Assembly (NCBI GenBank): GCA_951406725.2
Contig: OX597821.1
Coordinates: 47,802,001 to 47,866,000, forward strand
Direction: 5' to 3'
Length of the DNA: 64,000 bases
Source of the DNA: Octopus vulgaris
Taxonomy: Eukaryota
The position numbers and the translations under genes are program-made. Below are positions 4,844 through 47,159 of this stretch, one piece after another (positions within the stretch are counted from its first letter, which is position 1; every line of letters starts with the position of its first letter). Under the pieces are notes generated by a model. It ran no database searches and had not been told where the DNA came from. It saw only the letters and a program-made list of their open reading frames with translations.

Positions 4844-5099
4844 AGTATGTATATATATATACATACATACACATACATATTCATGTGTGTATGTATATAT
4901 ATATATATGTATGTATATTGGTATGTATGCATATATATATATGTGTATGTATGTATGTATGTATGTATGTATGTATGTATGTATGTATGTATATAGATAT
5001 ATATCTATATCTATGAATATGTACATATATATATGTATATATACATATATATTAGATATAGATATATATATTTATCTGTCTGTCTCTCTCTGTGTGTGT

Positions 5100-5130
<31 letters not shown>

Positions 5131-6331
5131 ATCATCATCATCATCATCGTTTAGCGTCCGTTTTCCATGCTAGCATGGGTTGGACGGTTCTACTGGGGTC
5201 TGTGAAGCCAGAAGGCTTCATCAGGCCCAGTCAAATCTGGCAGTGTTTCTACGGCTATATGCCCTTCCTAACGCCAACCACTCCGTGAGTGTAGTGGGTG
5301 CTTTTTACGTGCCACCTGCACAGGTGCCAGACAGCTGGCAAACGGCCACGAATGGATGGTGCTTTTTATGTGCCACCGGCACGAGGCCAGTCGGGGCGGT
5401 GCTGGCAACGGTCGCGAAACGGAAGGTTCTCTTACATGCCACCGGCACTGGTAACACATCTGCAATTTCCATTGATCGATTTCCATTGATCGATTTCGAT
5501 TCTGATCCTCACTTGCCTCAACGGGTCTTCACAAGTAGAGTTTCGACATGCCACCGGCACTGGTAACACATCTGCAATTTCCATTGATCGATTTCGATTC
5601 TGATCCTGACTTGCCTCAACAGGTCTTCACAAGTAGAGTTTGTGTCCCAAGAAGGGAAGGTATGCATACGTAGGCTGGCTCCATCCCATGTAGAAGGCCA
5701 CGGGTTATGGACTCACTTGTCTTGCCGGGTCTTCTCGCGCACATCACACTTCCAGAGGTCTCGGTCTCTAGTCATTTCCTCAGTGAGACCTAAAGTTCGA
5801 AGGTCGTGCTTCACCACCTCGTCCCAGGTTTTCCTGGGTCTGCCTCTTCCGCAGGTTCTCTCAACAGCTAGGGTGTGGCACTTTTTCACACAACTATCTT
5901 CATCCATTCTCGCCACATGACCATACCAGCGCAAACGTCTCTCTTGCACACCACAACTGATGCTTCTTAGGTCCAGCTTTTCTCTCAAGGTACTTACACT
6001 CTGCCGAGTATGAGTACTGACATTACACATCCATCGGAGGATACTGGCTTCATTTCTTGCGAGCTTACGCATATCCTCAGCAGTCACGGCCCATGTTTCA
6101 CTGCCATGTAGCATGGCTGTTCGTACACACACATCATACACTGCCTTTCACTCTGTGCGAGAGGCCTTTTGTCACCAGCAGAGGTAAGAGCTCTCTGAAC
6201 TTTGCCCAAGCTATTCTTACTCTAGCAGTTACACTTTCAGCACACCCGCCCCCGCTGCTGACTTGGTCACCTAGGTAACGGAAACTATCAACTATTTCTA
6301 GTTTTTCTCCCTGGAAAGTGACGGAAGTTGG

Positions 6332-6332
<1 letters not shown>
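5131..6332 (-). mobile_element. 5'-truncated RTE-clade LINE with a long 3' UTR and (GAT)n tail
   Basis: C-terminal ORF with RTE motifs (HGSETW, RRLRWYGHVARM, GRGRPRKTW); the 3' UTR matches 38580-39058. Confidence 0.9.
5713..6330 (-). pseudogene. C-terminal part of RTE LINE reverse transcriptase ORF (truncated, frameshifted near 6141)
   Basis: ORF 5713..6141 carries RTE C-terminal motifs; a YLG-type thumb sequence lies upstream in another frame. Confidence 0.85.
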
Positions 6333-6363
<31 letters not shown>

Positions 6364-6389
6364 AATCCAAGTACACAGTATTAATAGAT

Positions 6390-6750
6390 CCATTATCACC
6401 AATCATACCAACTGGTTTCACACCAGATCTTAAATCAGTGCATGTTTATTACCTAATAAAATATAGTTGTCAGTGAAAGGAGGTATGGAAAAATGATTAC
6501 TATTCTACCTGCTATCTCTGATGAGTATATTTTATTAGGTAATCTTCCAATTAACTACTATCTGGTATGAAACCAATTGGTCAGGTTGATTGTAATATAT
6601 CTACAAACTGTATACATTTTGAATTATATCCTTATATATTCACTCCACTGACAAATATATGAGTGCCTATTTTATCTCTCTAATGCATTTAAACTAACAT
6701 AAATTTGAAAATTTATGAGTTTATACCTCTAAGTTGATACTGATTAGTGC
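6390..6750 (+). mobile_element. Penelope-like non-autonomous remnant with an inverted segment and a hammerhead-like motif (6514-6586)
   Basis: 6408-6465 is inverted relative to 6525-6581; motif ATCT-CTGATGA...GAAA-CCAATTGG-TC-AGGT. Confidence 0.55.
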
Positions 6751-6754
6751 TATA

Positions 6755-6917
6755 GACGCAGGAGTGGCTGTGTGGTAAGTAGCTTGGTTACCAACCACAT
6801 GGTTCCTAGTTCAGCCACACTGCGTGTCACCTTGGGCAAGTGTCTTCTACTATAGCCTCGGGCCGACCAAAGCCTTGTGAGTGGATTTGGTAGACAGAAA
6901 CTGAAAGAAGCCCGTCG

Positions 6918-6982
<65 letters not shown>

Positions 6983-7195
6983 CTGTATACGTTTATGTGT
7001 CTGTGTTTGTCCCCCCAACATCGCTTGACAACTGATGCTGGTGTATTTACGTCCCCGTAACTTAACGGTTCGGCAAAAGTGACTGATAGAATAAGTACTA
7101 GGCTTACAAAGAATGAGTCCTGGGGTCGATTTGCTCGACTAAAGATGGTGCTCCAGCATGGCCACAGTCGAATGACTGAAACAAGTAAAAGAATA
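6755..7195 (+). mobile_element. SINE family A
   Basis: Near-consensus full copy. Confidence 0.92.
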
Positions 7196-7479
7196 TTCTT
7201 TACAGTCTCACTTCACAATCCACTCTTGTTGTTGGACATTGTGTAGTCCCACCCACTTTACATTTCTGAAATGTTGGTAATTCGCATGTTGATGATCTGT
7301 TGATTAATCAACATATCACTTGTTTACTTGGTTATTTGGTTGGCCAGGTGAGTTGAGAATTGCTTATGGATGTTGAGCATACTACATACTTGACTGCATT
7401 ATGTTTATGTCACAATAAAGAATTTTAATGAAACAATTGTAGCAATTCTGAATAACCCAGTCTTCTGTTTTTAATATAT

Positions 7480-7695
7480 CATCATCATCATCATCATTCA
7501 ACATCTGTTCTCCATGCTGGCATGGGTTAGACAGTCTGACAGGTGCTGGCCAGCAGGGGAGCTGCCCAGGCTACATTTTGCCTGTTTTGGCATGGTTCCT
7601 ACAGCTTGATACCCTTCCTAATGCCAACCACATCACAGAGTGTACTGAACGCTTTTAATGACACTAGCATGGCTACTTTTATGTGGCACTGGCAC
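7480..7695 (-). mobile_element. Degraded RTE 3' UTR fragment next to a (TAA)n tract
   Basis: (CAT)n followed by TCCATGCTGGCATGGGTTAGAC...CCCTTCCTAATGCCAACCAC, similar to 5131-5310. Confidence 0.7.
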
Positions 7696-7707
7696 ATAAT
7701 AATGATG

Positions 7708-7750
<43 letters not shown>

Positions 7751-7752
7751 TA

Positions 7753-7832
<80 letters not shown>

Positions 7833-8689
7833 CACTCAAGGCGTACCATTCAGATAGTCGTATGGGCTGTGGTTTGCCCATGACTGATATAGAGGTACAA
7901 CCATGAGAACAGACAAATCGACCACTTCCTCCAATACCACCACCCCATTACCACCACCACGTCACCCCGACCTTGGAATGATGAAAAGGAAGATTAAATA
8001 TGGTAGGATTTGAACTCATAGCACAAAGGACAGCAAATGAAACACCCTGAAGCAGTTCGTTTAATGTTCCCCCACATCAGTGAACCCCAGCCCTCTGATA
8101 ACATCTGCTTCTAATGTGGGAACAAGGTGTGAAATATCAGGGAAAGAAAGAAAAGGGGCTTGGTTGATTGCCTACACCCCACCACCATTGCAGCAGGACT
8201 TGGATAGTACTTTTACATGGTACCAGTATGGGTACTTTTATATGGCACTAGCACAGGCGTTTTTCCGTGCCCACACACACATGCGACCAGCATAGGCTCT
8301 TTTATGTGGAACCAGCACAGTTGCTTTTACTAGGTACCAGCACCCACAAGGCCACAATCATCATCATCATCTTAATATCTACTTTTGCATGCTTGCATGA
8401 GTCAGGTTGATGACGAAGTTTTCAACAGTTTGCTGCTCTTTTTGTCACTCACCTTCACCTATTTCCAAGCAAGGTAAAAATTTTCCTTGGTCAGACATAG
8501 TCTTCATGGAAGATTGGAAAGGAACAACATCATCTGTTCAACAGTGATGATTATTTACAACCTTCCCTTGATGTCAAGACAAGGGTACCTACAAGCACAT
8601 ACACATGCACACACACACACATGGCACATTGCTGCCCACCACAACAGAATTGAGATCCTAAAACTGTCACATAAAAAAGCATTGATGTG

Positions 8690-8872
8690 AGTGCTGGTGT
8701 CACATAAAAAGAACTCAGTGCACTCTGTAAAGTGGTTGGCATTAAGAAGGGCATCCAGCCATAGAAGTCAAGCCAAAAGAAACTATGGAACCCTTGGCCT
8801 TACCAGTTCCTGTAAAGCCATCCACCCTGGCGTGTGGAAAACAGATGTTGAATGTTGACAATGATGATGATA
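8690..8872 (+). mobile_element. Degraded RTE 3' UTR fragment
   Basis: GTGGTTGGCATTAAGAAGGGCATCCAGCC ... GGAAAACAGATGTT plus (GAT)n. Confidence 0.65.
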
Positions 8873-9127
8873 AAGAGGCTTCTTTCAGTTTCTATCTACC
8901 AAATCTATTCACAAGGCTTTGGTTGGCTTGGGGCTATAGCTGAAGTCATTTACCCAAAATGGCAAACCATATGACTGAGCCTGGGATCCCATGGCTGGGA
9001 AGCAACCTTCTTAGCCATGCACCCACTCTAATTGTAAACCTTTTCCAAGTAAAAGTTCATAAATATTAAACTCAGCCAAAAAGTATTAAGTATCTTTCAA
9101 TTGAATGTTTCATTGTTTTATACATAC

Positions 9128-9173
<46 letters not shown>

Positions 9174-9229
9174 TCATCAGCATCATCATCATCAGCGGAT
9201 GTTAAACGATGATAATGATGATGACATAT

Positions 9230-9266
<37 letters not shown>

Positions 9267-9347
9267 TTTATATAATTTATATACATACATAAGCAAATGT
9301 AAATATATCCGCACATGTGTGTTTGTGTGAATGTATGTGTGTGTATG

Positions 9348-9387
<40 letters not shown>

Positions 9388-9909
9388 TACTTATATGTAT
9401 GCAACTCACCACCATTAAATCAATGTTGTTTATAAACTATTTAGTTCTATCTTAAACGTTAACAACTTTCAATGTTCTCGTCAAAGTAAAAAAACCCTCT
9501 TATTGAATACAACACCGATTTCATCTGTCTATAAATCAATTTAATGACTCGTTTATGTACAGGCTTTATTAAAGATTCTTTTGATGTGTTTGTTGTTGAA
9601 CAATAGTACACAGTTTATACATAGTCTTGTTGAGGAAATATTTCACAGAAATTGTGTCACTTGGTCAAATATAGTCATTAAATGTATGTTTTTATTTTCT
9701 AAGTTATTAAAGTAACATTAATTCAGTTTTAATTTTTAACAAATGTAATATAGTAATATTACATTTATTTTATTTGAATTTTTCCTATTTGAATAATAAT
9801 TATAGTGGGAGGATTTATGTTAGTCCAAAGAAAAGAAAAGAACTCCCATTTTTAAACTTTTAACCATTTGAATTAATTAATATATAGTTTAATTATATAA
9901 TAATGGTAT

Positions 9910-10075
9910 GTGCACTGCAAAATTGGTTGGTAGGGTGTCACACCAAATTGGTAGATTATTGCACCAAACTGGAAGAGTATCACACAAAATTGGTAGAATG
10001 ACATGCTGACTTGGTAGAATGTTGCACCAAAATTAGTAAAGTGTCATACTAAGTTGGTAATGTTGCACCTAATAA
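9910..10075. repeat. Degenerate ~22-bp minisatellite
   Basis: About 7 units resembling GCACCAAATTGGTAGAATGTT. Confidence 0.6.
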
Positions 10076-11058
10076 CTTTTGGTATTTTGTAAAATCTTAT
10101 TAAATCTTGGTGTTTATAAAAATGTATTGCAACTGATATAAGCAAGTAAGCCCCTCAAACTAGTGTTCTAATGTGGCCACAACTCAATGACTGAAACTAG
10201 TAAATAGCAATAAAATACTAAAATAATATTTGTTGTTGTTGTTGTTAAGCAGAGATCCTAGGAACATTCAACCAGAACATCATTGTACACAGCTCAACAT
10301 GGCAACAATACCAGTAGTCATAGTGTTACTAGCACAACTTAGTAACACTGGTCATGGCAACAGATATAGTGCAGTGAGACATGGTAAACCAGCTACAAGC
10401 ATATCAATTCAGATGCAGCCCCTGCTGTCAGCATAGATACCATCATACACGGCAGAAACCAACACAGCAATTATTAACACCATCAAGCAAAATGCAGCCA
10501 AGCTCACACAAGAACTGTCATCAACTTACCAAACTACTTTTTCCCCAATGACACAGATAATAGTTGTATCATAGCCAACACTTCTTACTAATGATACACC
10601 GCTATTCTATTAAAATATATGTTTCCATTACTCCCGGTGCACTATACACACACACACACACACACCACCACCACTACCACCACCACCACCACCACCACCA
10701 ACACCACACTACACATACGCATACACACACTGAGATAAATGTTTGCAAAACTTTTGAGCAATGCAGACGAAGAGTTGAAAAAATATGTAAGATCATACAA
10801 ATGAATGAAATCAAAGAGAAAAGATAATATAATGGGATGCAATATACTAGAATGTGTAACAAAGCATTTCCCAAAATTCTTTTGACTGTTTTCTTTCTTC
10901 TCTTCTAAAAAGGAATTTTTCTTGAAATTTTAAAAGGATTGTTAAAACTCAATTTATCCTTTTGCTTTTTTTTTTTCATTCATTGACACACCTTACATAT
11001 TTTGCTTTATTCCTCATACTCACTGCCCACAAGTTTTTGCAAGCAATTATCATACATA

Positions 11059-11362
11059 TTTGTTTGTTCCTTCTCGAGTCATGCCTGGCTCATAAGGGCC
11101 GGTTTCCCCGGTTTCTTGGCATATAGGTTCGCCACCTGGACGGGACGCCGGTCCATCGCAGGTGAGCTGCAAGAGGCAGGAGGAAAGAGTGAGAGAAAGT
11201 TGTGGTGAAAGAATCAGCAGAAGTTTCACCATTACTTTCTGCTGGAGCCACATGGAGCTTAGGTGTTTCACTCATAAACACACACATCGCCTAGTCTGAG
11301 ATTCGAACCCGCGATCCCTTGACTGCGAGTCCAATACTCAAACCACTAGGCCATGTGCCTCC
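11059..11362 (-). mobile_element. tRNA-derived SINE family B, tail type 1
   Basis: Head GGAGGCACATGGCCTAGTGGT...GGTTCGAATC; shared body CTTTCACCACAACTTTCTCTCACTCT; tail with CTGCGATGGACCGGCGTCCCGTCCAGG. Confidence 0.85.
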
Positions 11363-12347
11363 ACAATTACATTACATATGCTTATTGGAATGTTTTAAGC
11401 AAATCACAAAACTCATATACATGCATACATACATGAATACTCACATATGATTTGCACAAAAACCTTGCAATACTCAGTTTCATGGAGACAGAGCAAAAGA
11501 AACTAATGTGGGTTCTCCAAATCCAATCCATTAGCAACAAAGTGAAAATTTATAAGAGATTCCCAAATTTCTCCATCTGAAATATTAATGTGAACAGATG
11601 CAAAGACGTGGGTGCATGCAGTTCAATGAATGCACCAACTCAACCACATATTTACAAATACTGGTAACAATTTTAACTCATAAAGTCTTGTCGTTTTACT
11701 GGCGACCAGCCTGAATACTCTCAAAAAGACTTAAATAGAACTCAAATGCAAACATACACACATGTGTATACATATACACATATACATAACATAATGGTGA
11801 CCACTGTAGTCAGTCTGATACTCAGATGCTTGTAATTACTGCACAAACAAAGGCAACCTATCAAAATTTTAGGACAATAAAAATAAGAAAATAAGTGGAA
11901 ATTTTACTGGTGAGTGTGTTACATAATAAGGCACAAAAAGAAAATGACTCTCCCCAGACACAACAGATTACACACAAATATTTCTACATAAGTGTTTTAA
12001 ACATTACATGTGTTACAACATATCTATATAAACAATACACACAGCTTATCATATTTATATAAACACATAACTGTAATAATAGGAGTAGAAATTAATATTA
12101 TTAAATAATATTATCAGCAACTCTGGCCTTCTGCTATCTCAGATGTAATCACTAGTAATCAAGTACTGTAAATAATAAACTTCTGATTAGTTAATGTATG
12201 TAGTAGCCAATTTTTTTCATTTTATGCCCTACTATATTCAAACAGAAGTATATATATTAGAGAAATCAATATATCTGTAACAAGTTATATTAATCCTTAA
12301 AAATTGTACATATGATAGGAGGCTTCTGTTCGGACATCAAGACAATA

Positions 12348-12578
12348 CCTATTTCTTTACTACCCACAAGGGGCTAAACACAGAGAGGACAAACATCGAC
12401 TGACAAACTGATTAAGTCAATTATATCGACCTCAGTGCGTAACTGGTACTTATTTAATCGACCTCGAAAGGATGAAAGGTAAAGTTGACCTCGGCGGAAT
12501 TTGAACTCAGAAAGTAGCGGCAGACGAAATACTGCTAAGCATTTCGCCCGGCTTGCTAACGTTTCCGTCAGCTCGCCA
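12348..12578 (-). mobile_element. tRNA-derived SINE family C (Nin-like central domain)
   Basis: GGCGAGCTGACGGAAACGTTAGC...GAGTTCAAATTCC...CCTTTCATCCTTTCGAGGTCGATTAAATAAGTACCAG. Confidence 0.85.
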
Positions 12579-12952
12579 GAAATAAATGCCAGAAATACCC
12601 TGAAATTCACTGGAGGCAGCTTAATCACTTATTTAAAATACTGATCATTTACCCACTCATAAGTTTCATTCATTACCTTAGAATTTAAATTAGGATTTTG
12701 TCAAACTGTTAGATTTATCATGCTTGACATTAATTTAACAATTATAGGAAGTACTACAACAAACTTTCACCAAGATTATGCTGCAAGTTTGCTGAATTTA
12801 TGTTGCACCTCTACTAAACATCATAAAACGATGACTGAATCAATTTCTCTCCTTATTCTGTATTTATTTACCAAATCTCCTCATACAGGAGGTCATAAAT
12901 CTACTTTCTTGGCCAGAAAGTTTGTACTGGAGTTATTAGCTTAAATACTCAC

Positions 12953-13061
12953 CTGAGGCATTTCCATATCATTACTGGATAGTGACAGGAAAAGAATTAG
13001 AAAAAGATAAAATAGATGTCAATCAAAGCTAGATTCCAGAGTTATTCACCTGCTGCTGCAC
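12953..13061 (-). other. Candidate host exon (non-coding or 5' UTR/start exon)
   Basis: Acceptor ttgtttccatgtgtgtag and perfect donor CAG|GTGAGT; stops in all frames, ATGs near the 3' end. Confidence 0.3.
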
Positions 13062-13249
13062 CTACACACATGGAAACAACAGTAAATAATTAAATCTGGG
13101 TGGAAATTGTTAGACATTCCAAACAGGAAATTATCAATTAATCATCTCATATAATAAAGTTTCATTATATATGCATTATCACATGCAACTTGCCTCAGAG
13201 TTCTCTTTTAATAATGGGAGTCAAACTGACCTACTGTTGCTATTGCTGT

Positions 13250-13562
13250 TGCTGTTGAGCGAACGGTCTTCGTCCCAGAGCTTGCAAGATGGGAGAAGTC
13301 CGAATCGTGGTCCTTTGCTATTCGTAAGACCCACAGAAGAGAAAGCAGGTCAACCCCCCGACACTGAGAACATCGACGGATGGATGAATGCGCATCCAGG
13401 CTCAGCGGTTGTGTAGGAAGTCGGGGACAAGAAAAAGGAAGAAAGAGTGAGAGAAAGTTGGAGCGAAAGAATACAACAGGGGTCGCCACCACCCCCTGCC
13501 GGAGAAACCGCGATCCTCCGACCGCGAGTCCGCTGCCCTAACCATTGGGCCATTGCGCCTCC
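13250..13562 (-). mobile_element. SINE family B, tail type 2 (internally deleted)
   Basis: Head GGAGGCGCAATGGCCCAATGGTTAGGGCAGCGG; the tail matches 38080-38270. Confidence 0.88.
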
Positions 13563-13787
13563 ACTACTGTTGCTGTTTTCTTTGCTGTACATTTTCAGGA
13601 GAAGAAGTACATGGTGAGAAAGTGAAGAAAGGGATTCATACCACTGCTAAATCTAAATGAGGGTGAGAGATTCTAAAATGTTGCATAACTTGTGGAGGAA
13701 GTTTTAGCATCAACTTACTCCTTACTTTGAATGTATTCATGTAAAAATACCTTGTTATATGTACAAACATACACACAGACATATTTA

Positions 13788-13886
13788 ATAACAGTTTGAC
13801 TCAGCTCCACACAGCTTTAAGTTTCGTGAACATGTCTTGTGCCCCATGAAATTTCAAGTCATGTGGAGCAGAGTCAAACTGTTATA
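13788..13886. mobile_element. Small MITE-like inverted repeat
   Basis: ATAACAGTTTGACTCAGCTCCACA ... TGTGGAGCAGAGTCAAACTGTTAT. Confidence 0.65.
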
Positions 13887-13907
13887 AAATGCATGTAACT
13901 ACAACCA

Positions 13908-14067
13908 AATGTATTTACATTATTTACATTATTTACAATTGACAGATATTTGTCCTCATCTTGTTTGTTGTTAACACAACGTTTTGGCTGATATACCCTC
14001 CAGTCTTCATCAGGTGTCTTAGGGAAACTTCGAACCTGGGTTCTCATTCCTAATGTATTTTTTTGAT

Positions 14068-14100
<33 letters not shown>
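13908..14100 (-). mobile_element. 3' half of the Penelope-like tRNA/(TAA)n/hammerhead element, split by the Dong insertion
   Basis: Highly similar to 39755-39895; hammerhead motif at 13971-14018. Confidence 0.85.
13971..14018 (-). ncRNA. Minimal type I hammerhead ribozyme motif (this copy has GAAA changed to AAAA)
   Basis: GACAC-CTGATGA-AGACTG..loop..CAGCC-AAAA-CG-TT-GTGTT. Confidence 0.7.
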
Positions 14101-14274
14101 TTTTTTTTCTTCTTTCAAATTTGCTTCCATTTCTTGCCGAGTGTCTTCCCAACTCCTAGGGCAAAGAAACTCATAGTATACATTGGTAGGCCATTAAACC
14201 AAACTCAGTAGTTCGTTCATTTTTTTTTTTTTTTTTTTTAAAGTTAAATTAAAATACATGAGCAGCAACAGTTC

Positions 14275-16704
14275 TCACATCGACAATGCTCTTCTCAATA
14301 CGTGTGATGTACCAGTTAAGACAATCTTTTGCACTTCTTGCAGGGATGGTAAGCCAGGGATCATTCTCATATAATTTTCGGTTCCCTTCTTGATCATTCC
14401 TAGTGCTCCTACGATCACTGGTATTGTAACCGCCTTGAGATGCCACATTTTCTCAATTTCAATGAGTAGGTCTTTACATTTTCTGAGCTTGTCAAACTCT
14501 TTCGCTGAGATATTATGATCACAGGGGATGCTCATGTCGATCAATAAGCAAACTTTATTGTTTTGGTCTTTCACAACAATATCTGGTTTATTGGCCTTGA
14601 TGGTTCGGTCTGTATGTACTGGAAAGTCCCACAGAATGGTTACATTTTCTCCTTCAGTTACAGCCTCAGGGTGGTGATTATACCACTTGTCGGCAGTTTT
14701 GATATTGTAATGCCGACTTATTAGCCAGTGGAGATATTGGCCAACTCTGTCATGTCTTAATTTATACTCCACTGGTGCTAAGACTTTACATCCAGAGATT
14801 AGATGGTCCACTGTTTCAATCATGTCGTTGCAGAATCGGCATTTTGGGTCTGCTCCATTTTTCATCACATTGGCCTGGTAGTTCCGGGTTAATAGGCTTT
14901 GATCTTGAGCAGCCAGGATGAAACCTTCGCTCTCTGCTTTTAGCCCTGAGCTCCGTAGCCACTGATGGGTTTGCTTCTGGTCAACATCAGCTTGTTTGCT
15001 GCGGGTCACATATTTGCTGTGCAGAGGTTTCTCCTCCCACCTATCAGCCAATTGCTCGTGCGCTTTCTTCATTGCCATCATTTTCACCTTCTTTGCAACA
15101 ATAGTTGCCGTACTTCCCTCGGGTTGTTCAGTTTGGGTATCCTGCACGAGATCAATAGCAAATTTTTTGCTTTCCTTTATGATAGAATGAAGCTTCTTTC
15201 GTCTCTTGTGATTTTCCACGAGCTTTAGCATCCAGTCATTCGATATTTCGAGATATTTGGCCAGTCCAATTGTGGTTGTTTTGTAAACTAGTTCAAATTG
15301 GATCAGGCCTCGACCTCCTTGGGCTCTGGGAAGGTAAAGGCGATCTACGTCTGCCTTTGGGTGGTGCATCCTATTGCAACTCAGCAGCTTGCGTATTTTT
15401 CTATCTATATTCTTTACTTCACTCATATTCCAGTTCAACACATTGTAGCTATAAGTAACAACTGGAACTGCTAAGGAATTTATAGCTAGAACCTTGTTAC
15501 GTGCATTTAGTTCAGATTTCAGGACTGCACGAACTCTCCTATAACATTCCTTCCTGATTTTCTCTTTCATGCTCGCATGCTGAATACCAGAGCCTTCATT
15601 TATCCTTAAATATTTGTATGTTTGTTCTTGCTCAAGCTCTCTTATGACTGTGTCAACATCTAACATGACTGAATTTGTGGTCTTCACTTTCCCTTTCTGG
15701 AAAGTGGCCTTGGCACACTTCTCAAGTCCAAACTCCATCCCGATGTCATCGCTGAATGCTTTCACGGTGCGCAATAGGCCTTCAAGTTCATTATTGTCTT
15801 TACCATAAAGTTTTAAGTCATCCATATAAAATAGATGGCTTATTTTTTTATTGGCAATTTTATACCCATACCCTGTTCTGTTTAATTCACTTGTAAGGGG
15901 TATTAGGGCTATGCAGAATATTAAAGGTGAAAGTGAGTCACCTTGAAAAATTCCACAGTTGATGTTTATATTTTCTGAGGCAAGTACTCCATTAGAGTGG
16001 TATAATTGGAGATTCGTATTCCACAACGACATATTGTGCTTCAGGAAGTTTGAAATCACAGAGGAAATTTTGAAGATGTCCAGCGATCTCAAGATCCATG
16101 GATGCAGTATACTGTCGAAGGCCTTTTTGTAGTCAATCCATGCGGTGCTGAGATTTCTGCGCTTGTTGTGACAGTTCTCAAGGATCATACGATTGATTAG
16201 CAGTTGATCTTTGCATCCGTAAGAGCCTCGGCGGCACCCTTTTTGTTCAATGGGGAAAATATCGTTCTTCTCCATGAATGCATATGTTTTCTCTGCCAGG
16301 ATAGATGTTAGGATTTTATACGTGGTGGATAGACAGGTTATAGGCCGATAGTTTTTTGGAAGGTTGGTTTCGTTATTCTTTGGGAGTAGGTAAGTAATGC
16401 CACTTGCTAACCATTCAGGTGTTTTCTTTGGGTCTCTCATAATTCCATTGAGCAGCTGAACTAGCTTACCGTGTGCGCATGGGAGCGATGCGAGCCAGAA
16501 ATTCGGCACCCTATCTTTACCGGGGGATTTCCAATTATGGGCCTTCGTGAGTGCCTTTCTTAGGTCTGCTATTGTGATGTCTTCCCATGCTTGTTGTTGT
16601 AAATTTTGGTAGGATCCTTCAGTTTGTATAATCCAGTCTGCATTTATGTTGTACGTCTTCTTGTCACTCCAAATCCTTTTCCAAAAGTTTTGAACTTCTT
16701 CCAT
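14275..16704 (-). CDS. R4/Dong RT plus restriction-like endonuclease (uninterrupted 809-aa C-terminal part of a frameshifted ORF)
   Basis: NYRPITCL, IDYKKAFDS, GIFQGDSLSP, HLFYMDD, CRFC-H-C, RHD, NKPDIVV. Confidence 0.9.
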   Translation of the reverse strand: MEEVQNFWKRIWSDKKTYNINADWIIQTEGSYQNLQQQAWEDITIADLRKALTKAHNWKSPGKDRVPNFWLASLPCAHGKLVQLLNGIMRDPKKTPEWLASGITYLLPKNNETNLPKNYRPITCLSTTYKILTSILAEKTYAFMEKNDIFPIEQKGCRRGSYGCKDQLLINRMILENCHNKRRNLSTAWIDYKKAFDSILHPWILRSLDIFKISSVISNFLKHNMSLWNTNLQLYHSNGVLASENININCGIFQGDSLSPLIFCIALIPLTSELNRTGYGYKIANKKISHLFYMDDLKLYGKDNNELEGLLRTVKAFSDDIGMEFGLEKCAKATFQKGKVKTTNSVMLDVDTVIRELEQEQTYKYLRINEGSGIQHASMKEKIRKECYRRVRAVLKSELNARNKVLAINSLAVPVVTYSYNVLNWNMSEVKNIDRKIRKLLSCNRMHHPKADVDRLYLPRAQGGRGLIQFELVYKTTTIGLAKYLEISNDWMLKLVENHKRRKKLHSIIKESKKFAIDLVQDTQTEQPEGSTATIVAKKVKMMAMKKAHEQLADRWEEKPLHSKYVTRSKQADVDQKQTHQWLRSSGLKAESEGFILAAQDQSLLTRNYQANVMKNGADPKCRFCNDMIETVDHLISGCKVLAPVEYKLRHDRVGQYLHWLISRHYNIKTADKWYNHHPEAVTEGENVTILWDFPVHTDRTIKANKPDIVVKDQNNKVCLLIDMSIPCDHNISAKEFDKLRKCKDLLIEIEKMWHLKAVTIPVIVGALGMIKKGTENYMRMIPGLPSLQEVQKIVLTGTSHVLRRALSM

Positions 16705-17915
16705 GGGAGGGGGTCTTTAACGGTTACTTTCTCCTTCCCTATTTCTCTGTAGAATTTTTTGGCATTGGATGTGAACAGCTTATTTTGCTTGTAAAACTTG
16801 TTTCTCTTCTCAAATCTTCGTATTCTTTGGGCTTTTGCTTGGACTAAATTTTCTCTTCATCTTTCTTCCTGTTCTGGATCTTACATCATTTCCACATATT
16901 AGTTCACTTAATATTGATATTTCCCCTCTCATAAATTCAATCTCTTTTTCAATTTTACTTCTCCAGGTTTGATTTCTTCCCAGGTTTTGTTTTCTTTGTT
17001 TTTCGGGGGCATACAGCTGGTTTCAATTGCCCTAGCAGAAGCGTAAATAATTTCATTTAACTCAGTAAAATCAGGTTTTAATTCTCGTATTATTTCATTT
17101 GTTACATAGTTGCCAATTTGGATTTGTTTTTTATTTTGGTTTGTATTTGAGAGTTTATGAAGTGGTTCTCTATCATTCATACTTGTATGTCTTACAACTT
17201 CAAGCGTATTCAGGATTTTCTGCCTCATTTCTGCCATAGACTCTCTGTGTTCTTCAGCAAATGCGAGATCTTCAGTTACTGTTGTTTTTTCGTTTTCCTG
17301 GCTATCTTTAACAGGTACAATAGAATTTCTTGTATCTTCAGGCCTTTGCGTACTTTGGTCAGATGGCAGTCTTTCAATTAAGCCTCGTGGCGGGCTATAC
17401 TGTTCATCTGATTCTTCATTTCCTTTGTGTCTTATATTTATGTCATTTTCCGTTGCGTGCTTGATCGCGCTTATTTCACTGTCTGTGAGTCTGTTATTTC
17501 TAAGGATATCCCTCCTCACATTTGCTAATTTGTTCTCGTCTAAATAGGGCCTACTGTCTTGATTCCGTGTTCTCCATATACTGTAAGAGTTTGCGGTGTG
17601 TCTCTCTGAGATGGCCTACCTAATGCATAGTAATAAGCGTATATTACTTCTTTATACTCTTCTCGGGTCCATTTGTTCCGCTTACATTTTTCTTTCTGTG
17701 GTGGTTGTGGTGGTGAACTTGGAGGGCTCGAGTTGGGGATTTCCCGTTCAAGTGACCATCCATGTCCGTATTCGGAGAAGAGTTTGTGCCAGTTGATGAC
17801 TTTTCGATCCCAGGCTGGCTCTTCCCAGATTAACCATAGGACAAGCAATTTGGTATACTGATTTAGTTTTCCTTTTAGTTTCCAAAAACATTTTGGTGCT
17901 ACGATAATGTTATCA
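16705..17915 (-). pseudogene. Frameshifted N-terminal part of the Dong ORF (Myb-like motif)
   Basis: ORF pieces 17540..17848 (KWTREEYKEVIYAYY) and 16929..17519 are colinear with the RT ORF. Confidence 0.75.
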
Positions 17916-18807
17916 TTTTTTAGCTTTGATTGGCTCGTGGGGAGACGGCCATCATTGCCGTTACAATTATAATCGTACCATTATAGCAGCCGTAGTCGGC
18001 TTATTATTGTTATTATCATCACCATTACCATCACTATCATCATTATCACCACCATTACCATCATTATTATCATCATCACCATCACCATCACCACCATCAT
18101 CATCAATGATATTGTTTTATGTGTAGTCACAGCAGTATCTTATTATTGATATTTTTGTTTTTTTATCATTATCGCCATCACAGTAGTGTCTGTCTGTCTC
18201 GTTGGCTGGCTTGGTGGTTGGCTGGCTGACTGTCTTCAACACCAGAGTTCTTGCCTGTCAAATAATACTTTCTTTGTGTTGGTTGAACTCTTTGAGTGTG
18301 TGTGTGTGTAGATAGATAGATAGATAGATTATCAGCACTATTACTATCATTCTTATCATCATCACCATCATCACCATCACCATCAGTGATTTTTTTTTTT
18401 TTTTAGGTGGGGTCCTATCGGTCAAAAAATGTTTACTACTATTAGGCTTAAGAAAAATTAAGGAAGGGCTGTTCTGTATTGTTTGTGAATAGAGAAGTTG
18501 TGTTCGGCCAGAGAGAATCTTAGCATCATCATTTTTTTTTGTTTTTTTCCATGTGCGTTTGTGTTATTGCAATAAAAAGTGTTTGTATATTTCCTGTAAG
18601 GTAATATTGTGGAGGTTGAAGTTGACTTTTCTAGAGATGTTTGTATGTCCAGTTAGAAGAACAGGTGTGTTTTTACAATAAAAAGTATGTTTACATATAT
18701 ATTTGAATATTCAGGGAGGAAGCAAAGAAAAGTCAGATTTTCATAGAAAGTTTTAGGGTTTTGTAAGTCCACAAAAAGAAAAGCGTGATGTTTTTAGAGA
18801 GAAGAAA

Positions 18808-18808
<1 letters not shown>

Positions 18809-18857
<49 letters not shown>

Positions 18858-19043
18858 AGTCACTGCCTGGAATCGAACTCAGAATCTTGGAGTTAGTAGC
18901 CCATGGGCATATGGCATAGTGGTTAAGAGTGCGAGCTACTAACCCTAAGATTCCGAGTTCAATTTCAGGCAGTGACCTCAATAATAATAATAATAATAAT
19001 GATAATAATAATAATATTAATAATAATGATGATGATGATGATG

Positions 19044-19084
<41 letters not shown>

Positions 19085-32312: not shown

Positions 32313-32540
32313 TATATTTCACTTATGCCTTGTGAGACTAATAACCAGGTGTGGAACTCAGTATACATATGCTTCAGAACAAAGTGTTAGATGAGTACAG
32401 AGAGGTAATAAGTAAAGGAGATGACAAATCATCTCCTTTACTTATTACCTCTCTGTACTCAACTAACACTTTGTTCTGAAGCATATGTATACTGAGTTCT
32501 ACACCTGGTTATTAGTCTCACAAGGCATAAGTGAAATATA
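32313..32540. repeat. Near-perfect palindrome with 112-bp arms and a 4-nt loop
   Basis: Arms 32313-32424 and 32429-32540, loop CAAA, about 2 mismatches. Confidence 0.95.
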
Positions 32541-39058: not shown

Positions 39059-39796
39059 TACCAAACAGATCGTTTGGTATCAATTTTTCATTTATGAAGT
39101 AATGGAGCACAACGCACATAGAATTTGTATTACCAAGTAAGTTTTTCTATATACTTGTGTGACTCTCTTTCTTGCCTTCATTCTTTTCCCTTTTCTTTCT
39201 CTCACTCTTTCACTTTTATTCTAGCCTTTCTACTTATTCCTTTTCTCTCTCTCCCTCTTGTATTCCTAACCTTTCTCCTTTCTCGTCATCCCTTTCCCTT
39301 TTTTTCTTTGTCGCTCTCTCTCTCTCTCTCTCTTGCCTGCTACTCTCACATGGCCTGAGGCCAGTTCCTCTTTTCCTTCCTCTCTTACGCTGGTCCCATG
39401 GCTGACCAATCACAAATTCTCTGTCTCCCTGTTCCCCATTCCTCAAGACATATTTTAAGCCTTATCCACTATCTTCATCTCCTTGTTTTGTTCAACTATT
39501 CATCCTTGTACACTGCCCTAAATCAAACTCACTGTTATTTTGCTTGTTTTGTTTTGTTTTTTGCTCTCATCCCTAATTCTCAGCAAGAAATTTTTTTTTT
39601 TGCAGGCACCACCAGTTGGGAAGCACTCAGTCTTATCATTAAACTGATGAAAAATTACAGACCTTCTGTTTGTCTCCTGTTTGTTTTTACATTCAGTATA
39701 CATTATGTCGTTTGTTTATTTACCATACATTTTTCATTATATATATATATATACATTAGTTACATTTGATGGATATTTGTCCTCATCTTGTTTGTT

Positions 39797-39843
39797 GTTA
39801 ACACGTTTCGGCTGATATACCCTCCAGCTTTCATCAGGTGTCT
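39797..39843 (-). ncRNA. Minimal type I hammerhead ribozyme motif (3-nt deletion at the cleavage site/stem I in this copy)
   Basis: GACAC-CTGATGA-AAGCTG-GAGGGTATAT-CAGCC-GAAA-CGT-GTT. Confidence 0.72.
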
Positions 39844-39943
39844 TGGGGAATTTTCAAACCTGGGTTCTCATTCCTAAGGTATTTTTCGATGTTGTCGTTG
39901 TTGTTGTTGTTGTTCTTCTTTTTATTATTATTATTTTTATTAT

Positions 39944-39995
39944 TTCCATGCTAGCATGGAAAGCGGACGCTAAACGATGATGATGATGATGATTA
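39944..39995 (+). mobile_element. Extremely truncated RTE 3' end inserted in the (TAA)n tract
   Basis: CCATGCTAGCATGGAAAGCGGACGCTAAAC(GAT)n, matching the RTE terminus at 39009-39058. Confidence 0.8.
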
Positions 39996-40030
<35 letters not shown>

Positions 40031-40036
<6 letters not shown>

Positions 40037-40097
40037 CCTGGAATCAAACTCGGAATCTTGGGGTTAGTAGGCTGCGCTCTTAACCACTATGCTATAT
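40031..40097 (-). promoter_or_regulatory. tRNA-derived Pol III internal promoter (A/B boxes) inside the Penelope-like element
   Basis: TAGCATAGTGG (A box), anticodon-like arm, GAGTTTGATTCC (B box). Confidence 0.7.
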
Positions 40098-40117
40098 TAT
40101 AGAGTAAATTTTAGGGC

Positions 40118-40323
40118 TTATAAAACTAATATTTTCCTATCCGTCCTTAATACCAGTTCCCATATGCTACTCATATCTGTACTTGGTCTGCTTAGGAGGT
40201 TGTTGTATCCTAGCATATGTACTGTTTCTTTTAATTTTCCTATTTTCCAGTGGTGTTCTCTGTCTATTATTTTAACTTCATCCCAAAGCTGTTTATCTGA
40301 ATCTTGTCCCCATATCTGTTCAC
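40118..40323 (-). pseudogene. C-terminal fragment of Penelope-like GIY-YIG endonuclease ORF
   Basis: Manual translation QIWGQDSDKQLWDEVKIIDREHHWKIGKLKETVHMLGYNNLLSRPSTDMSSIWELVLRTDRKILVL*, fitting the PLE C-terminal pattern W..VKIID.E..W..RK.KE..H...N.L.R....W..L. Confidence 0.75.
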
Positions 40324-40494
40324 TTCAATTCCCTTTATAGCCACTCTTTATCCTGCTGACTTGGTTCTTGGTAAATATATTGGAGTGTAAGTTCAAATCA
40401 ATTTGAGGTCTACTATGTGTTTTCCATAATGAGAGACTCTCGCTATGATCTGTTGACTCTCCTTTTACATATATATAAATATATATATATATAG

Positions 40495-45025: not shown

Positions 45026-45299
45026 TATCACACAATGGGGATACTGGTGGTAGTGGTGGTGGTGGTGGGAGTGAATGAAACACCAGTGTTTACACGTAGT
45101 CAGGGAGAGGAGATGGGTAAAAGATGATACAGATGGTAGGATGGAGGCAACTAAATAATTTAAATTATTTTCATTTCTTTTGAGTCCCATTCTGGCCAAT
45201 GTTAGCTACATCTGTGTTGATTCAATTAATATTAATGCAGCTGCACTCTGGACTGTGTATTGTTTGATATGCAACATTAACTCACATGTAAGTTAGAGT

Positions 45300-46004
45300 G
45301 AGTGCAAATGAACTGAGAAACTGGTATGTGATACTGCAAGGTATTTGAGTGCAAATGAACTGAGAAACTGGTATGTGATACTGCAAGGTATTTGAGTGCA
45401 AATGAACTGAGAAACTGGTATGTGATACTGCAAGGTATTTGAGTGCAAATGAACTGAGAAACTGGTATGTGATACTGCAAGGTATTTGAGTGCAAATGAA
45501 CTGAGAAACTGGTATGTGACACTGCAAGGTATTTGAGTGCAAATGAACTGAGAAACTGGTATGTGACACTGCAAGGTATTTGAGTGCAAATGAACTGAGA
45601 AACTGGTATGTGATACAGCAAGGTATTTGAGTGCAAATGAACTGAGAAACTGGTATGTGATACAGCAAGGTATTTGAGTGCAAATGAACTGAGAAACTGG
45701 TATGTGACACTGCAAGGTATTTGAGTGCAAATGAACTGAGAAACTGGTATGTGACACTGCAAGGTATTTGAGTGCAAATGAACTGAGAAACTGGTATGTG
45801 ACACTGCAAGGTATTTGAGTGCAAATGAACTGAGAAACTTGTATGTGACACTGCAAGGTATTTGAGTGCAAATGAACTGAGAAACTGGTATGTGACACTG
45901 CAAGGTATTTGAGTGCAAATGAACTGAGAAATTGGTATGTAACACGTCAAGTTATTTGAGTGCAAATGAACTGAGAAACTGGTATGTGATACTGCAAGGT
46001 ATTT
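45300..46004. repeat. 47-bp minisatellite, 15 tandem copies
   Basis: Unit GAGTGCAAATGAACTGAGAAACTGGTATGTGAYACWGCAAGGTATTT; copies directly adjacent with no spacers. Confidence 0.97.
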
Positions 46005-47159
46005 GACACATGTCAATATGAAGTAAGCACCCTTACCTAAGCTTGTCAATATGTAAGCCCTCTTACATAAAATATAAGGGGGCTTCTTTGAATGTGACAG
46101 TTGTTAATGATGATGATGATAATGATGATGATGATGGCGAAGATAGCAATAACAACAATGTTGACAATGAGGATGATGATGATGATGATAGTGGTGGCGA
46201 TGATGTTGGTGGTGGTAGTGGTAGCGATGGGGATGGTGGTGGTTGTAGTGGTGGTAGTGGTAGGGATTGACAGGATTATGGTAAAAAAAGTTATTGTTTT
46301 GGCTTAATTTGTGGTCTTTCTTAGCCATCTTGTATTCATTCCTATTTTACAAAGCATATTAATCCAACTTACATGGCACCAAATAGTCAAGCAGCAGCTT
46401 TCCTGACTGATAAAATACCATTCCACTAGGAATTTTACCCAAAGAATAATAACTTGCTAAATTTTTCGCCAACTCTGGCTGTTAGGACTTTTGATCATTC
46501 ACCTACTGCCAATTAAGTTACCTAGATAACAGAAGTTATTAACAATTTCTAAACAGCCACTAAAGCATTTGAATCTGAGAGAACCTATTTTTGGATGTCC
46601 TTTGTGTTTTACACTCCTTTGTACCTGATGCAAATAGAGGTTACATTTTTGTTAGCCTGCCTGTGATCTCACAACACCATAATTTTGTCCATTTTAATCC
46701 AAAGTACACTGTATGCAGTTTCTATCCATTCTTTTCAGGCATACTAAACACAGCCATTTCTCTGATGGTGGCAGGGGCATTGTCTTTTCTATTTAACAAA
46801 AGTTTAGCTTTGGTTAGGTTTCCATTAACTGAAATTTCTTCTCCTTACCCTCTGTAGGTTCTGCTACAAGAACTAGATCTTTGGTATGTAGGAGTTCCCA
46901 TAGACAGCAGAAATATCATAGATGTTTGTCTGTGCCTCCCAATACTGTTAGATGAAATAGATTTACCAATAATTAAAATGAAAATAAAGTTTCAGCAATT
47001 CATCACCTCTGCTTCCCACTTTCTTCAACACCTACACCACCTGATAACTCTAATGTTACTGCAATGTTCTTATTAACAATATATTTCCTTCCCAGTAGAC
47101 CCTCTAAATGAGAAATCCAATCACAGAATCAAAGCACCATCTGAACATGAGCAATACCA

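Follow-up and report, generated by a model that had tools for sequence, protein, structure and literature searches.

Promoters for RNA polymerase III (Pol III) are known from non-coding genomic parasites: short interspersed elements (SINEs), Cassandra and Sm-alpha. Coding Penelope-like elements (PLEs) of the Penelope/Poseidon type, among them Poseidon_Ac (PAc), have one open reading frame (ORF) that encodes a reverse transcriptase (RT) and, at its C-terminus, a GIY-YIG endonuclease, together with pseudo-long terminal repeats (pseudo-LTRs), inverted 5' arms and two tail ends (PMC11167929, PMC4209133, PMC8557442). Here we describe a PLE family of this organization, found in a 64,000-nucleotide stretch of Octopus vulgaris DNA (the window; positions 47802001-47866000 of contig OX597821.1), whose terminal repeat begins with a tRNA-derived head. 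As in Poseidon PLEs, its minimal hammerhead ribozyme overlaps the start of the ORF, A9 is followed by an extra base and stem III is a palindrome; the Anolis Poseidon ORF also begins at the hammerhead, and the two 3' ends of the octopus family parallel the two priming sites of Poseidon (PMC11167929). The head sets the family apart, since no Penelope or Poseidon element with a tRNA-derived or Pol III promoter is reported in the accessible text of PMC11167929, PMC4209133 and PMC8557442, and the control pseudo-LTRs analyzed below usually hold runs of four T and no B box.

The Schistosoma elements Sm-alpha and Sj-alpha likewise join a tRNA-derived part to a hammerhead and are described as Pol III-transcribed (PMC6765202, PMC2770079), but they are non-coding, SINE-like tandem repeats derived from tRNA-Gln, whereas the octopus head sits in a coding PLE with a minimal hammerhead inside its ORF. 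Non-LTR retrozymes, presented as PLE derivatives, are also non-coding hammerhead pieces related to PLE pseudo-LTRs; they are defined as tandem arrays, whereas the octopus solo repeats are dispersed or inverted, and neither tRNA nor Pol III nor a promoter is mentioned in the accessible part of that report (10.64898/2026.07.22.740005). Cassandra terminal-repeat retrotransposons in miniature use a Pol III gene fragment as promoter in a retroelement terminal repeat, but the fragment is 5S rRNA and the elements are non-autonomous members of the LTR class in plants (10.1101/2023.07.14.548913). Each part of the octopus element has a precedent (PLEs have hammerheads, Sm-alpha joins one to a tRNA-derived part, and the Cassandra terminal repeat holds a Pol III fragment); what is new is their union in a coding PLE. 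None of the PLEs in the literature searched had a repeat derived from tRNA; the search covered few subscription journals and neither Repbase nor Dfam, so that prior cataloguing is possible. The octopus SINEs OK, OR1 and OR2 of Ohshima and Okada in 1994, probably from the same genus, reportedly have tRNA-derived heads, and OR1 and OR2 are said to be CORE-SINEs. The solo repeat could be identical to one of the three. A 2026 repeat annotation of O. vulgaris lists Penelope-like and tRNA-SINE families and, as far as its accessible text goes, notes no tRNA-headed PLE.

A sequence-only reading of the window had proposed a PLE at 39755-40465 on the minus strand, with a tRNA-like head, a (TAA)n tract and a hammerhead behind the end of its ORF. 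We searched the assembly (2.80 Gb, 227 contigs) with this interval and obtained 5496 candidates, of which 40 were scored and 29 other loci kept. The junction of ORF end, linker and head, which the proposal expected to recur in other genomic copies, was kept in all 29. In 28 of these siblings, shared sequence continued upstream of the point at which the window copy is truncated, through a GIY-YIG core with CCHH and then, further up, RT motifs. A search with the N-terminal stretch, together with extended loci, gave a full unit of about 2.9 kb. One copy has the structure repeat-ORF-repeat (L128) and two are tandems (L203 and L225). In one further copy (L101/L126) the upstream repeat starts at head position +4, and the frame stays open across leader and hammerhead and on into the PLE N-terminus. 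The unit thus opens with the head and (TAA)n, followed by the start codon and, within the ORF, the hammerhead; RT and GIY-YIG come next, and beyond the stop a short linker leads to the next head. Because the frame of L101/L126 is uninterrupted, the start codon is placed some 30 nt ahead of the hammerhead, and the whole 5' leader consists of head and tract. That an autonomous ORF has this leader, in a unit without Pol III terminators, is a stronger point than any made in the sequence-only reading, which missed it. The window copy is a decayed member of an abundant Penelope-type family with a tRNA-headed terminal repeat. The head is a trait of the family and, as had been proposed, a fixed part of the pseudo-LTR: the junction is family-wide and most copies start at the head.

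The window copy itself occupies 39753-40288 on the minus strand (coordinates were taken by eye from rulers, with a possible error of a base or two). It is 5'-truncated at 40288: all 29 siblings align from about query position 178, and 40289-40465 is flank without relation to the PLE. The extent first claimed therefore stands for the module and not for this last part. The C-terminal 56 codons of the ORF, corresponding to the end of the GIY-YIG endonuclease (40121-40288), are 63% identical to the PLE protein P0003 (E 4e-22), and sibling copies show the GIY-YIG/CCHH and RT regions upstream, confirming that a PLE with a GIY-YIG end is present. The stop codon (40118-40120) and a short linker, delimited by sequence reading and sibling alignment, span 40098-40120. 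The linker of siblings repeats, inverted and in degenerate form, the ~17 nt with which the head begins; the window copy has lost about 11 nt of it. In one copy (L027) this inverted linker folds back onto the start of the head; it may be a relic of a fold-back by which head and ORF were joined. The tRNA-derived head (40034-40097) has its A box at 40084-40094 and its B box at 40040-40050 and has lost the cloverleaf. The first part of the (TAA)n tract (39992-40033) is followed by a secondary insertion of about 46 nt (39946-39991), a (CAT)n-associated repeat foreign to the PLE family and absent from siblings, which is also present in the window at 5131, 31359, 39009 and 47325. The remaining tract and short leader (39872-39945), placed by sequence and sibling alignment, lead to the likely start codon of the family ORF (39869-39871), in frame with the PLE N-terminus in full-length copies (L101/L126). 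A decayed minimal type I hammerhead (39800-39842), probable from core identity and covariation, comprises stem I, the core, the extra base after A9, stem II and a palindromic, loopless stem III. The tail (39753-39799) ends at the first of the two 3' ends preferred by the family, as mapped on its copies. All the parts first read on this strand, from the stop at 40118 through the A and B boxes and (TAA)n to the hammerhead and tail, are present.

The single ORF has an RT (Pfam RVT_1, E 5.5e-10) followed by the GIY-YIG domain, and its C-terminus matches P0097, which has PF01541, at E 1e-29; no direct Pfam call of GIY-YIG was obtained on the decayed copies and fragments of the family. Translations of natural copies show the CCHH motif in the endonuclease and no CX2-5CxxC linker finger, both of which are among the criteria for Penelope/Poseidon (PMC8557442). 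On these sequence features, with the endonuclease at the C-terminus, we would place the element with the Penelope/Poseidon EN+ PLEs. Its closest protein relatives (P0001-P0030 among them) are unnamed and 60-72% identical. The traits of pseudo-LTRs are also present, namely partial tandems, inverted 5' arms and an optional tail.

The family hammerhead matches the minimal PLE type described in PMC4209133, with a short stem I, the extra base after A9, G10.1-C11.1 and a palindromic, loopless stem III. Twelve core columns were invariant among three family copies and eight control PLE hammerheads. The stems were 83.6% paired, with compensatory changes in nine of ten pairs and a covariation score reached by none of 500 shuffles. 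Sequence identity in the core, and stems that covary with those of other PLE hammerheads, thus argue for a hammerhead at this position. Since the start codon of the ORF lies within the module, the hammerhead is coding sequence. Both core halves were intact in 20 of 92 fully covered copies, and the main non-CpG core variant falls on N7, the free position, changing Asp to Glu in the ORF. As first noted, the two window copies have different lesions: the hammerhead at 39800-39842 has G10.1 changed to A and has lost 3 nt at the cleavage triplet, and that of a second copy, at 13973-14018, has G12 changed to A and one stem II mismatch. Every integrated copy spans the hammerhead uncut, and an unconstrained dimer fold did not produce the hammerhead dimer. 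No pile-up of 5' ends was seen at the predicted cleavage site, just downstream of which 4-5 of 30 ORF-start copies (L202-L231) begin, a number that is not significant; these starts might reflect cleaved templates. Cutting is predicted to occur only as a dimer or with the help of protein and would be dispensable for making copies. The Poseidon hammerhead required protein, and insertion in vitro could do without this hammerhead (PMC11167929). Other minimal-hammerhead repeat families occur in the genome (two copies in L243, and L081 and L132); no tRNA head was seen upstream of these.

The head was compared with 40 ARAGORN calls from 30 host tRNA loci, a set covering some isotypes only, in which the best alignment was to tRNA-Arg(TCT) (z ~9) and the next to Arg(TCG). 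The A and B boxes are each identical to host tRNA-Arg at 9 of 11 positions, whereas the acceptor stem is unpaired and the tRNA stems are lost. Boxes kept and cloverleaf lost is the usual state of a SINE head. The tRNA origin follows from the alignment to host tRNAs, and an Arg-like tRNA is the probable, not proven, parent. ARAGORN found no tRNA in the window, the head included, and Rfam gave only microsatellite-driven miRNA matches and called neither a tRNA nor a hammerhead, also when a near-intact copy was scanned; the folding z-scores of head and hammerhead were not significant. In 845 kb of sequence from this genome, 197 of 202 near-complete head matches (overlapping loci counted) were followed by the tract. 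No different SINE body was found behind this head in the same 845 kb, where other SINE heads scored only at E >0.05. The window also has copies of two or more further abundant SINE families with tRNA heads, which resemble this head only weakly (6766, 21548, 30042, 36889, 37738 and 42804). Elsewhere (L071), seven tRNA-Cys-like genes are clustered in 3 kb, two of them with a changed anticodon.

Exact 34-mers were counted genome-wide, giving 6245 hits for the tail, 2767 for the head, 369 for the ORF end and 35 for the ORF start region just past the tail, with none for reversed controls. The respective hit rates of exact 34-mers (23/66; 2/12 to 15/29; 3/19; 1/8) put the true copy numbers very roughly at 18,000, 5,000-17,000, 2,300 and 300. 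The 5' boundaries of head-bearing copies were analyzed in the first 91 listed head matches (90 loci, all on contig C1) after removal of two near-identical duplicates (n=88). The boundary fell at about -26 to +15 of the tRNA in 67 copies, in the next 155 nt upstream in 6 and beyond in 15, giving a hazard ratio of 16 for breaks at the head versus the 155 nt just upstream (67/88 vs 6/21); boundaries were judged against one natural copy, and over-run into palindromic sequence is possible. Copies starting at the head and copies linked to the ORF, which the sequence-only reading had wished to see counted, thus number 67 and 21. In an independent set anchored on the tail (n=30), all 13 copies that reach the head stop there, 10 end in the tract and 7 elsewhere. 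Such a pile-up at the start of the head is what a Pol III start predicts. The 3' ends fell at two sites about 30 nt apart (35/88 and 30/88). An adjacent inverted arm was present in 44 of the 67 solo repeats, and the arms of inverted pairs agreed at a subfamily marker in all 21 informative pairs; many junctions between arms are palindromes centred on the head start. Marker agreement and palindromic junctions fit either a cDNA end that folded back or priming in pairs from a single source. The contrast in inverted arms between solo (44/67) and ORF-linked repeats (1/21) was discarded as unfair, the 5' ends of the latter lying outside the examined stretch.

A run of four T is a terminator for Pol III. 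We surveyed 148 aligned segments of the family (88.6 kb, median depth 32-37) for such runs. Over 2.66 kb of the sense strand, four-T runs stayed below 15% of copies at every position, and many four-A sites were fixed. The rate of four-T runs was 0.37 per kb, where composition predicts 2.11, with three-T runs near expectation. The controls were 79 PLE loci from metagenome contigs, several of them from one assembly (best identity in the metagenome scan, 50%). The 38 controls that were T-matched and at least 1.3 kb long had 3.27 four-T runs per kb. Only 3 of 58 controls lacked such runs in the RT core; all three have them elsewhere in the unit, and Rfam detected in these neither a tRNA nor any different Pol III gene. 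Between ORF end and hammerhead, control pseudo-LTRs had four-T runs in 17 of 19 cases and a B box in none of 19. In the 79 control loci relaxed ARAGORN gave noise and a scan for A and B boxes found no head. The depletion was significant by synonymous codon shuffle (p=0.019, 1.78 kb) and by the control rate (2e-4).

We favour, with a probability of roughly 0.65, an explanation in which Pol III starts at the head of the unit and the copies of the family are made from such RNA. Pol III would start a few bases upstream of the head and, without four-T runs in its way, would read across the ORF into the next repeat. By analogy with Anolis Poseidon, the RT of the element may then prime inside the tail: priming at the first tail would give the thousands of solo, SINE-looking repeats, and priming at a later tail the ORF-bearing copies. 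The cDNA could fold back through a small palindrome that lies at the RNA 5' end, producing part of the head-to-head inverted pairs. Initiation at the head is about as probable as this explanation taken whole; read-through of the ORF falls somewhat short of an even chance. A bolder version, which we put forward tentatively, is that an autonomous coding retrotransposon may have taken a captured tRNA gene as promoter in place of its own and cleared terminators from its whole 2.9-kb unit; Pol III would make the full-length template, and the solo repeats would be the missing intermediate between PLE pseudo-LTRs and tRNA-plus-hammerhead SINEs such as Sm-alpha. In thousands of copies the head pinpoints, within a few bases, where the RNA probably starts; the questions of where PLE transcripts begin, why PLEs form inverted arms and what their hammerheads do thereby become testable. 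If true, a coding retrotransposon driven by Pol III blurs the divide between SINEs and autonomous elements and offers a route from PLE repeats to hammerhead SINEs. Part of the SINE annotation in such genomes may really be PLE pseudo-LTR.

Several observations weigh against this explanation. In three RNA-seq runs (about 6 in 100 of the reads of each, strandedness unknown) there were thousands of family reads, mostly of 85-95% identity, with about equal strands and a depth that tracked copy number and was highest at the tail; no pile-up of starts or ends was detected, in a type of library poorly suited to it. This pattern fits read-through of old copies and is neutral on a Pol III transcript. 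Uncapped Pol III RNA is a poor mRNA, and the protein may require a second, Pol II transcript. None of 30 copies anchored just past the tail starts at the head, two of them (L203 and L225) running through into the previous ORF, and only one (L101) of three ORF-start copies reaching the head starts there. The absence of four-T runs is one observation on one family, the depletion is weaker under first- and second-order Markov nulls (p ~0.05 and ~0.11), and four-G runs are scarce as well. The hairpin at the head start could also stop the RT. The head might be a passenger in an element transcribed by Pol II, from an internal promoter in the pseudo-LTR or by read-through, with the pile-up caused by stalling of the RT at the 5' palindrome or by fold-back. 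A TATA-less internal promoter is present in the pseudo-LTR of Drosophila Penelope (PMC2377424); in the octopus family the hairpin spans the start of the head, two ORF-start copies traverse the head and the RNA-seq runs showed no RNA start. However, a stalled RT would leave ends 3' of the hairpin, yet many copies continue through it to about -7; the boxes have been retained though the tRNA stems were lost, and four-T runs, usual in control pseudo-LTRs, are missing across the unit. We therefore regard a passenger head as unlikely. That a tRNA pseudogene or SINE landed by chance behind one PLE fragment was conceivable only from the single window, and is refuted by the identical junction in every sibling and by the tract, with no other SINE body, behind nearly all heads; its probability is negligible.

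The sequence-only reading had further proposed that the module forms a Penelope-dependent SINE/retrozyme lineage of its own. Such a lineage would amplify from its own copies with the PLE enzyme and Pol III, and it gains from the roughly 3:1 excess of solo head-start copies over ORF-linked ones and from the promoter and priming site that solos carry. We compared 67 solo with 48 ORF-linked repeats. Both non-CpG subfamily markers occurred at similar frequency in the two sets, no solo-specific variant was found (the differences at p<0.05 being two CpG sites only), and non-CpG divergence was 5.1% for solo and 5.7% for ORF-linked repeats (p=0.26), so that markers and age are the same. Paired arms had 12 rare variants in common against about 3 expected, four times chance, suggesting that some templates had drifted a little; these amount to just ~0.3% of sites, and arm-to-arm conversion or RT errors could account for them. 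Alongside dispersed solos and inverted pairs, a handful of short local duplications occurred in the sampled loci, which contained no head-to-tail retrozyme array of two or more hammerhead units. Anolis Poseidon RNA needed about 55 nt past the priming site (PMC11167929), a stretch that would be missing from solos if the octopus element has the same requirement. The repeats share with tRNA-derived SINEs a box A and box B head as the 5' end of copies and differ in having no diagnostic variants of an independent lineage. With markers and divergence alike, no tandem arrays and the hammerhead uncut, the separate lineage was not borne out, and we consider it improbable. The templates thus lay close to the master. 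The best reading of solos is as by-products of the autonomous element that arose when head-started RNA was primed at its first tail; a small fraction may have been re-mobilised.

The ORF-less recurrence of the module in the window, first read as two pieces at 13908-14100 and 18809-18985, was real, but these belong to a single solo repeat interrupted by a 4.7-kb element, plus an inverted arm. Sequence and window self-matches delimit, on the minus strand, the 3' half of the solo pseudo-LTR (13908-14100), with (TAA)n, the hammerhead at 13973-14018 and tail, and its 5' half (18808-18899), with a partial head and (TAA)n; a head-to-head inverted arm with a complete head and (TAA)n follows on the plus strand (18905-19084). 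The interrupting element (14101-18807, minus strand), inserted in the (TAA)n tract of the solo, is a Dong/R4-like non-LTR element with a REL endonuclease and an 813-aa RT/REL frame at 14275-16716. A related REL insertion after the tract was present in L059 (60% identity) and, by reading, in L035. Dong of Bombyx resides in TAA repeats (PMC3774820). From the Dong/R4-like insertions in the window solo, L035 and L059, the (TAA)n tract of the PLE is a landing site for a second retrotransposon.

Two other features of the window were recorded. A near-perfect, MITE-like inverted repeat of 140 bp lies at 32356-32497, where Rfam gave a match to a plant miRNA precursor below the gathering score. Positions 45299-46006 hold a 47-bp tandem array of 15 copies with 97% matches.
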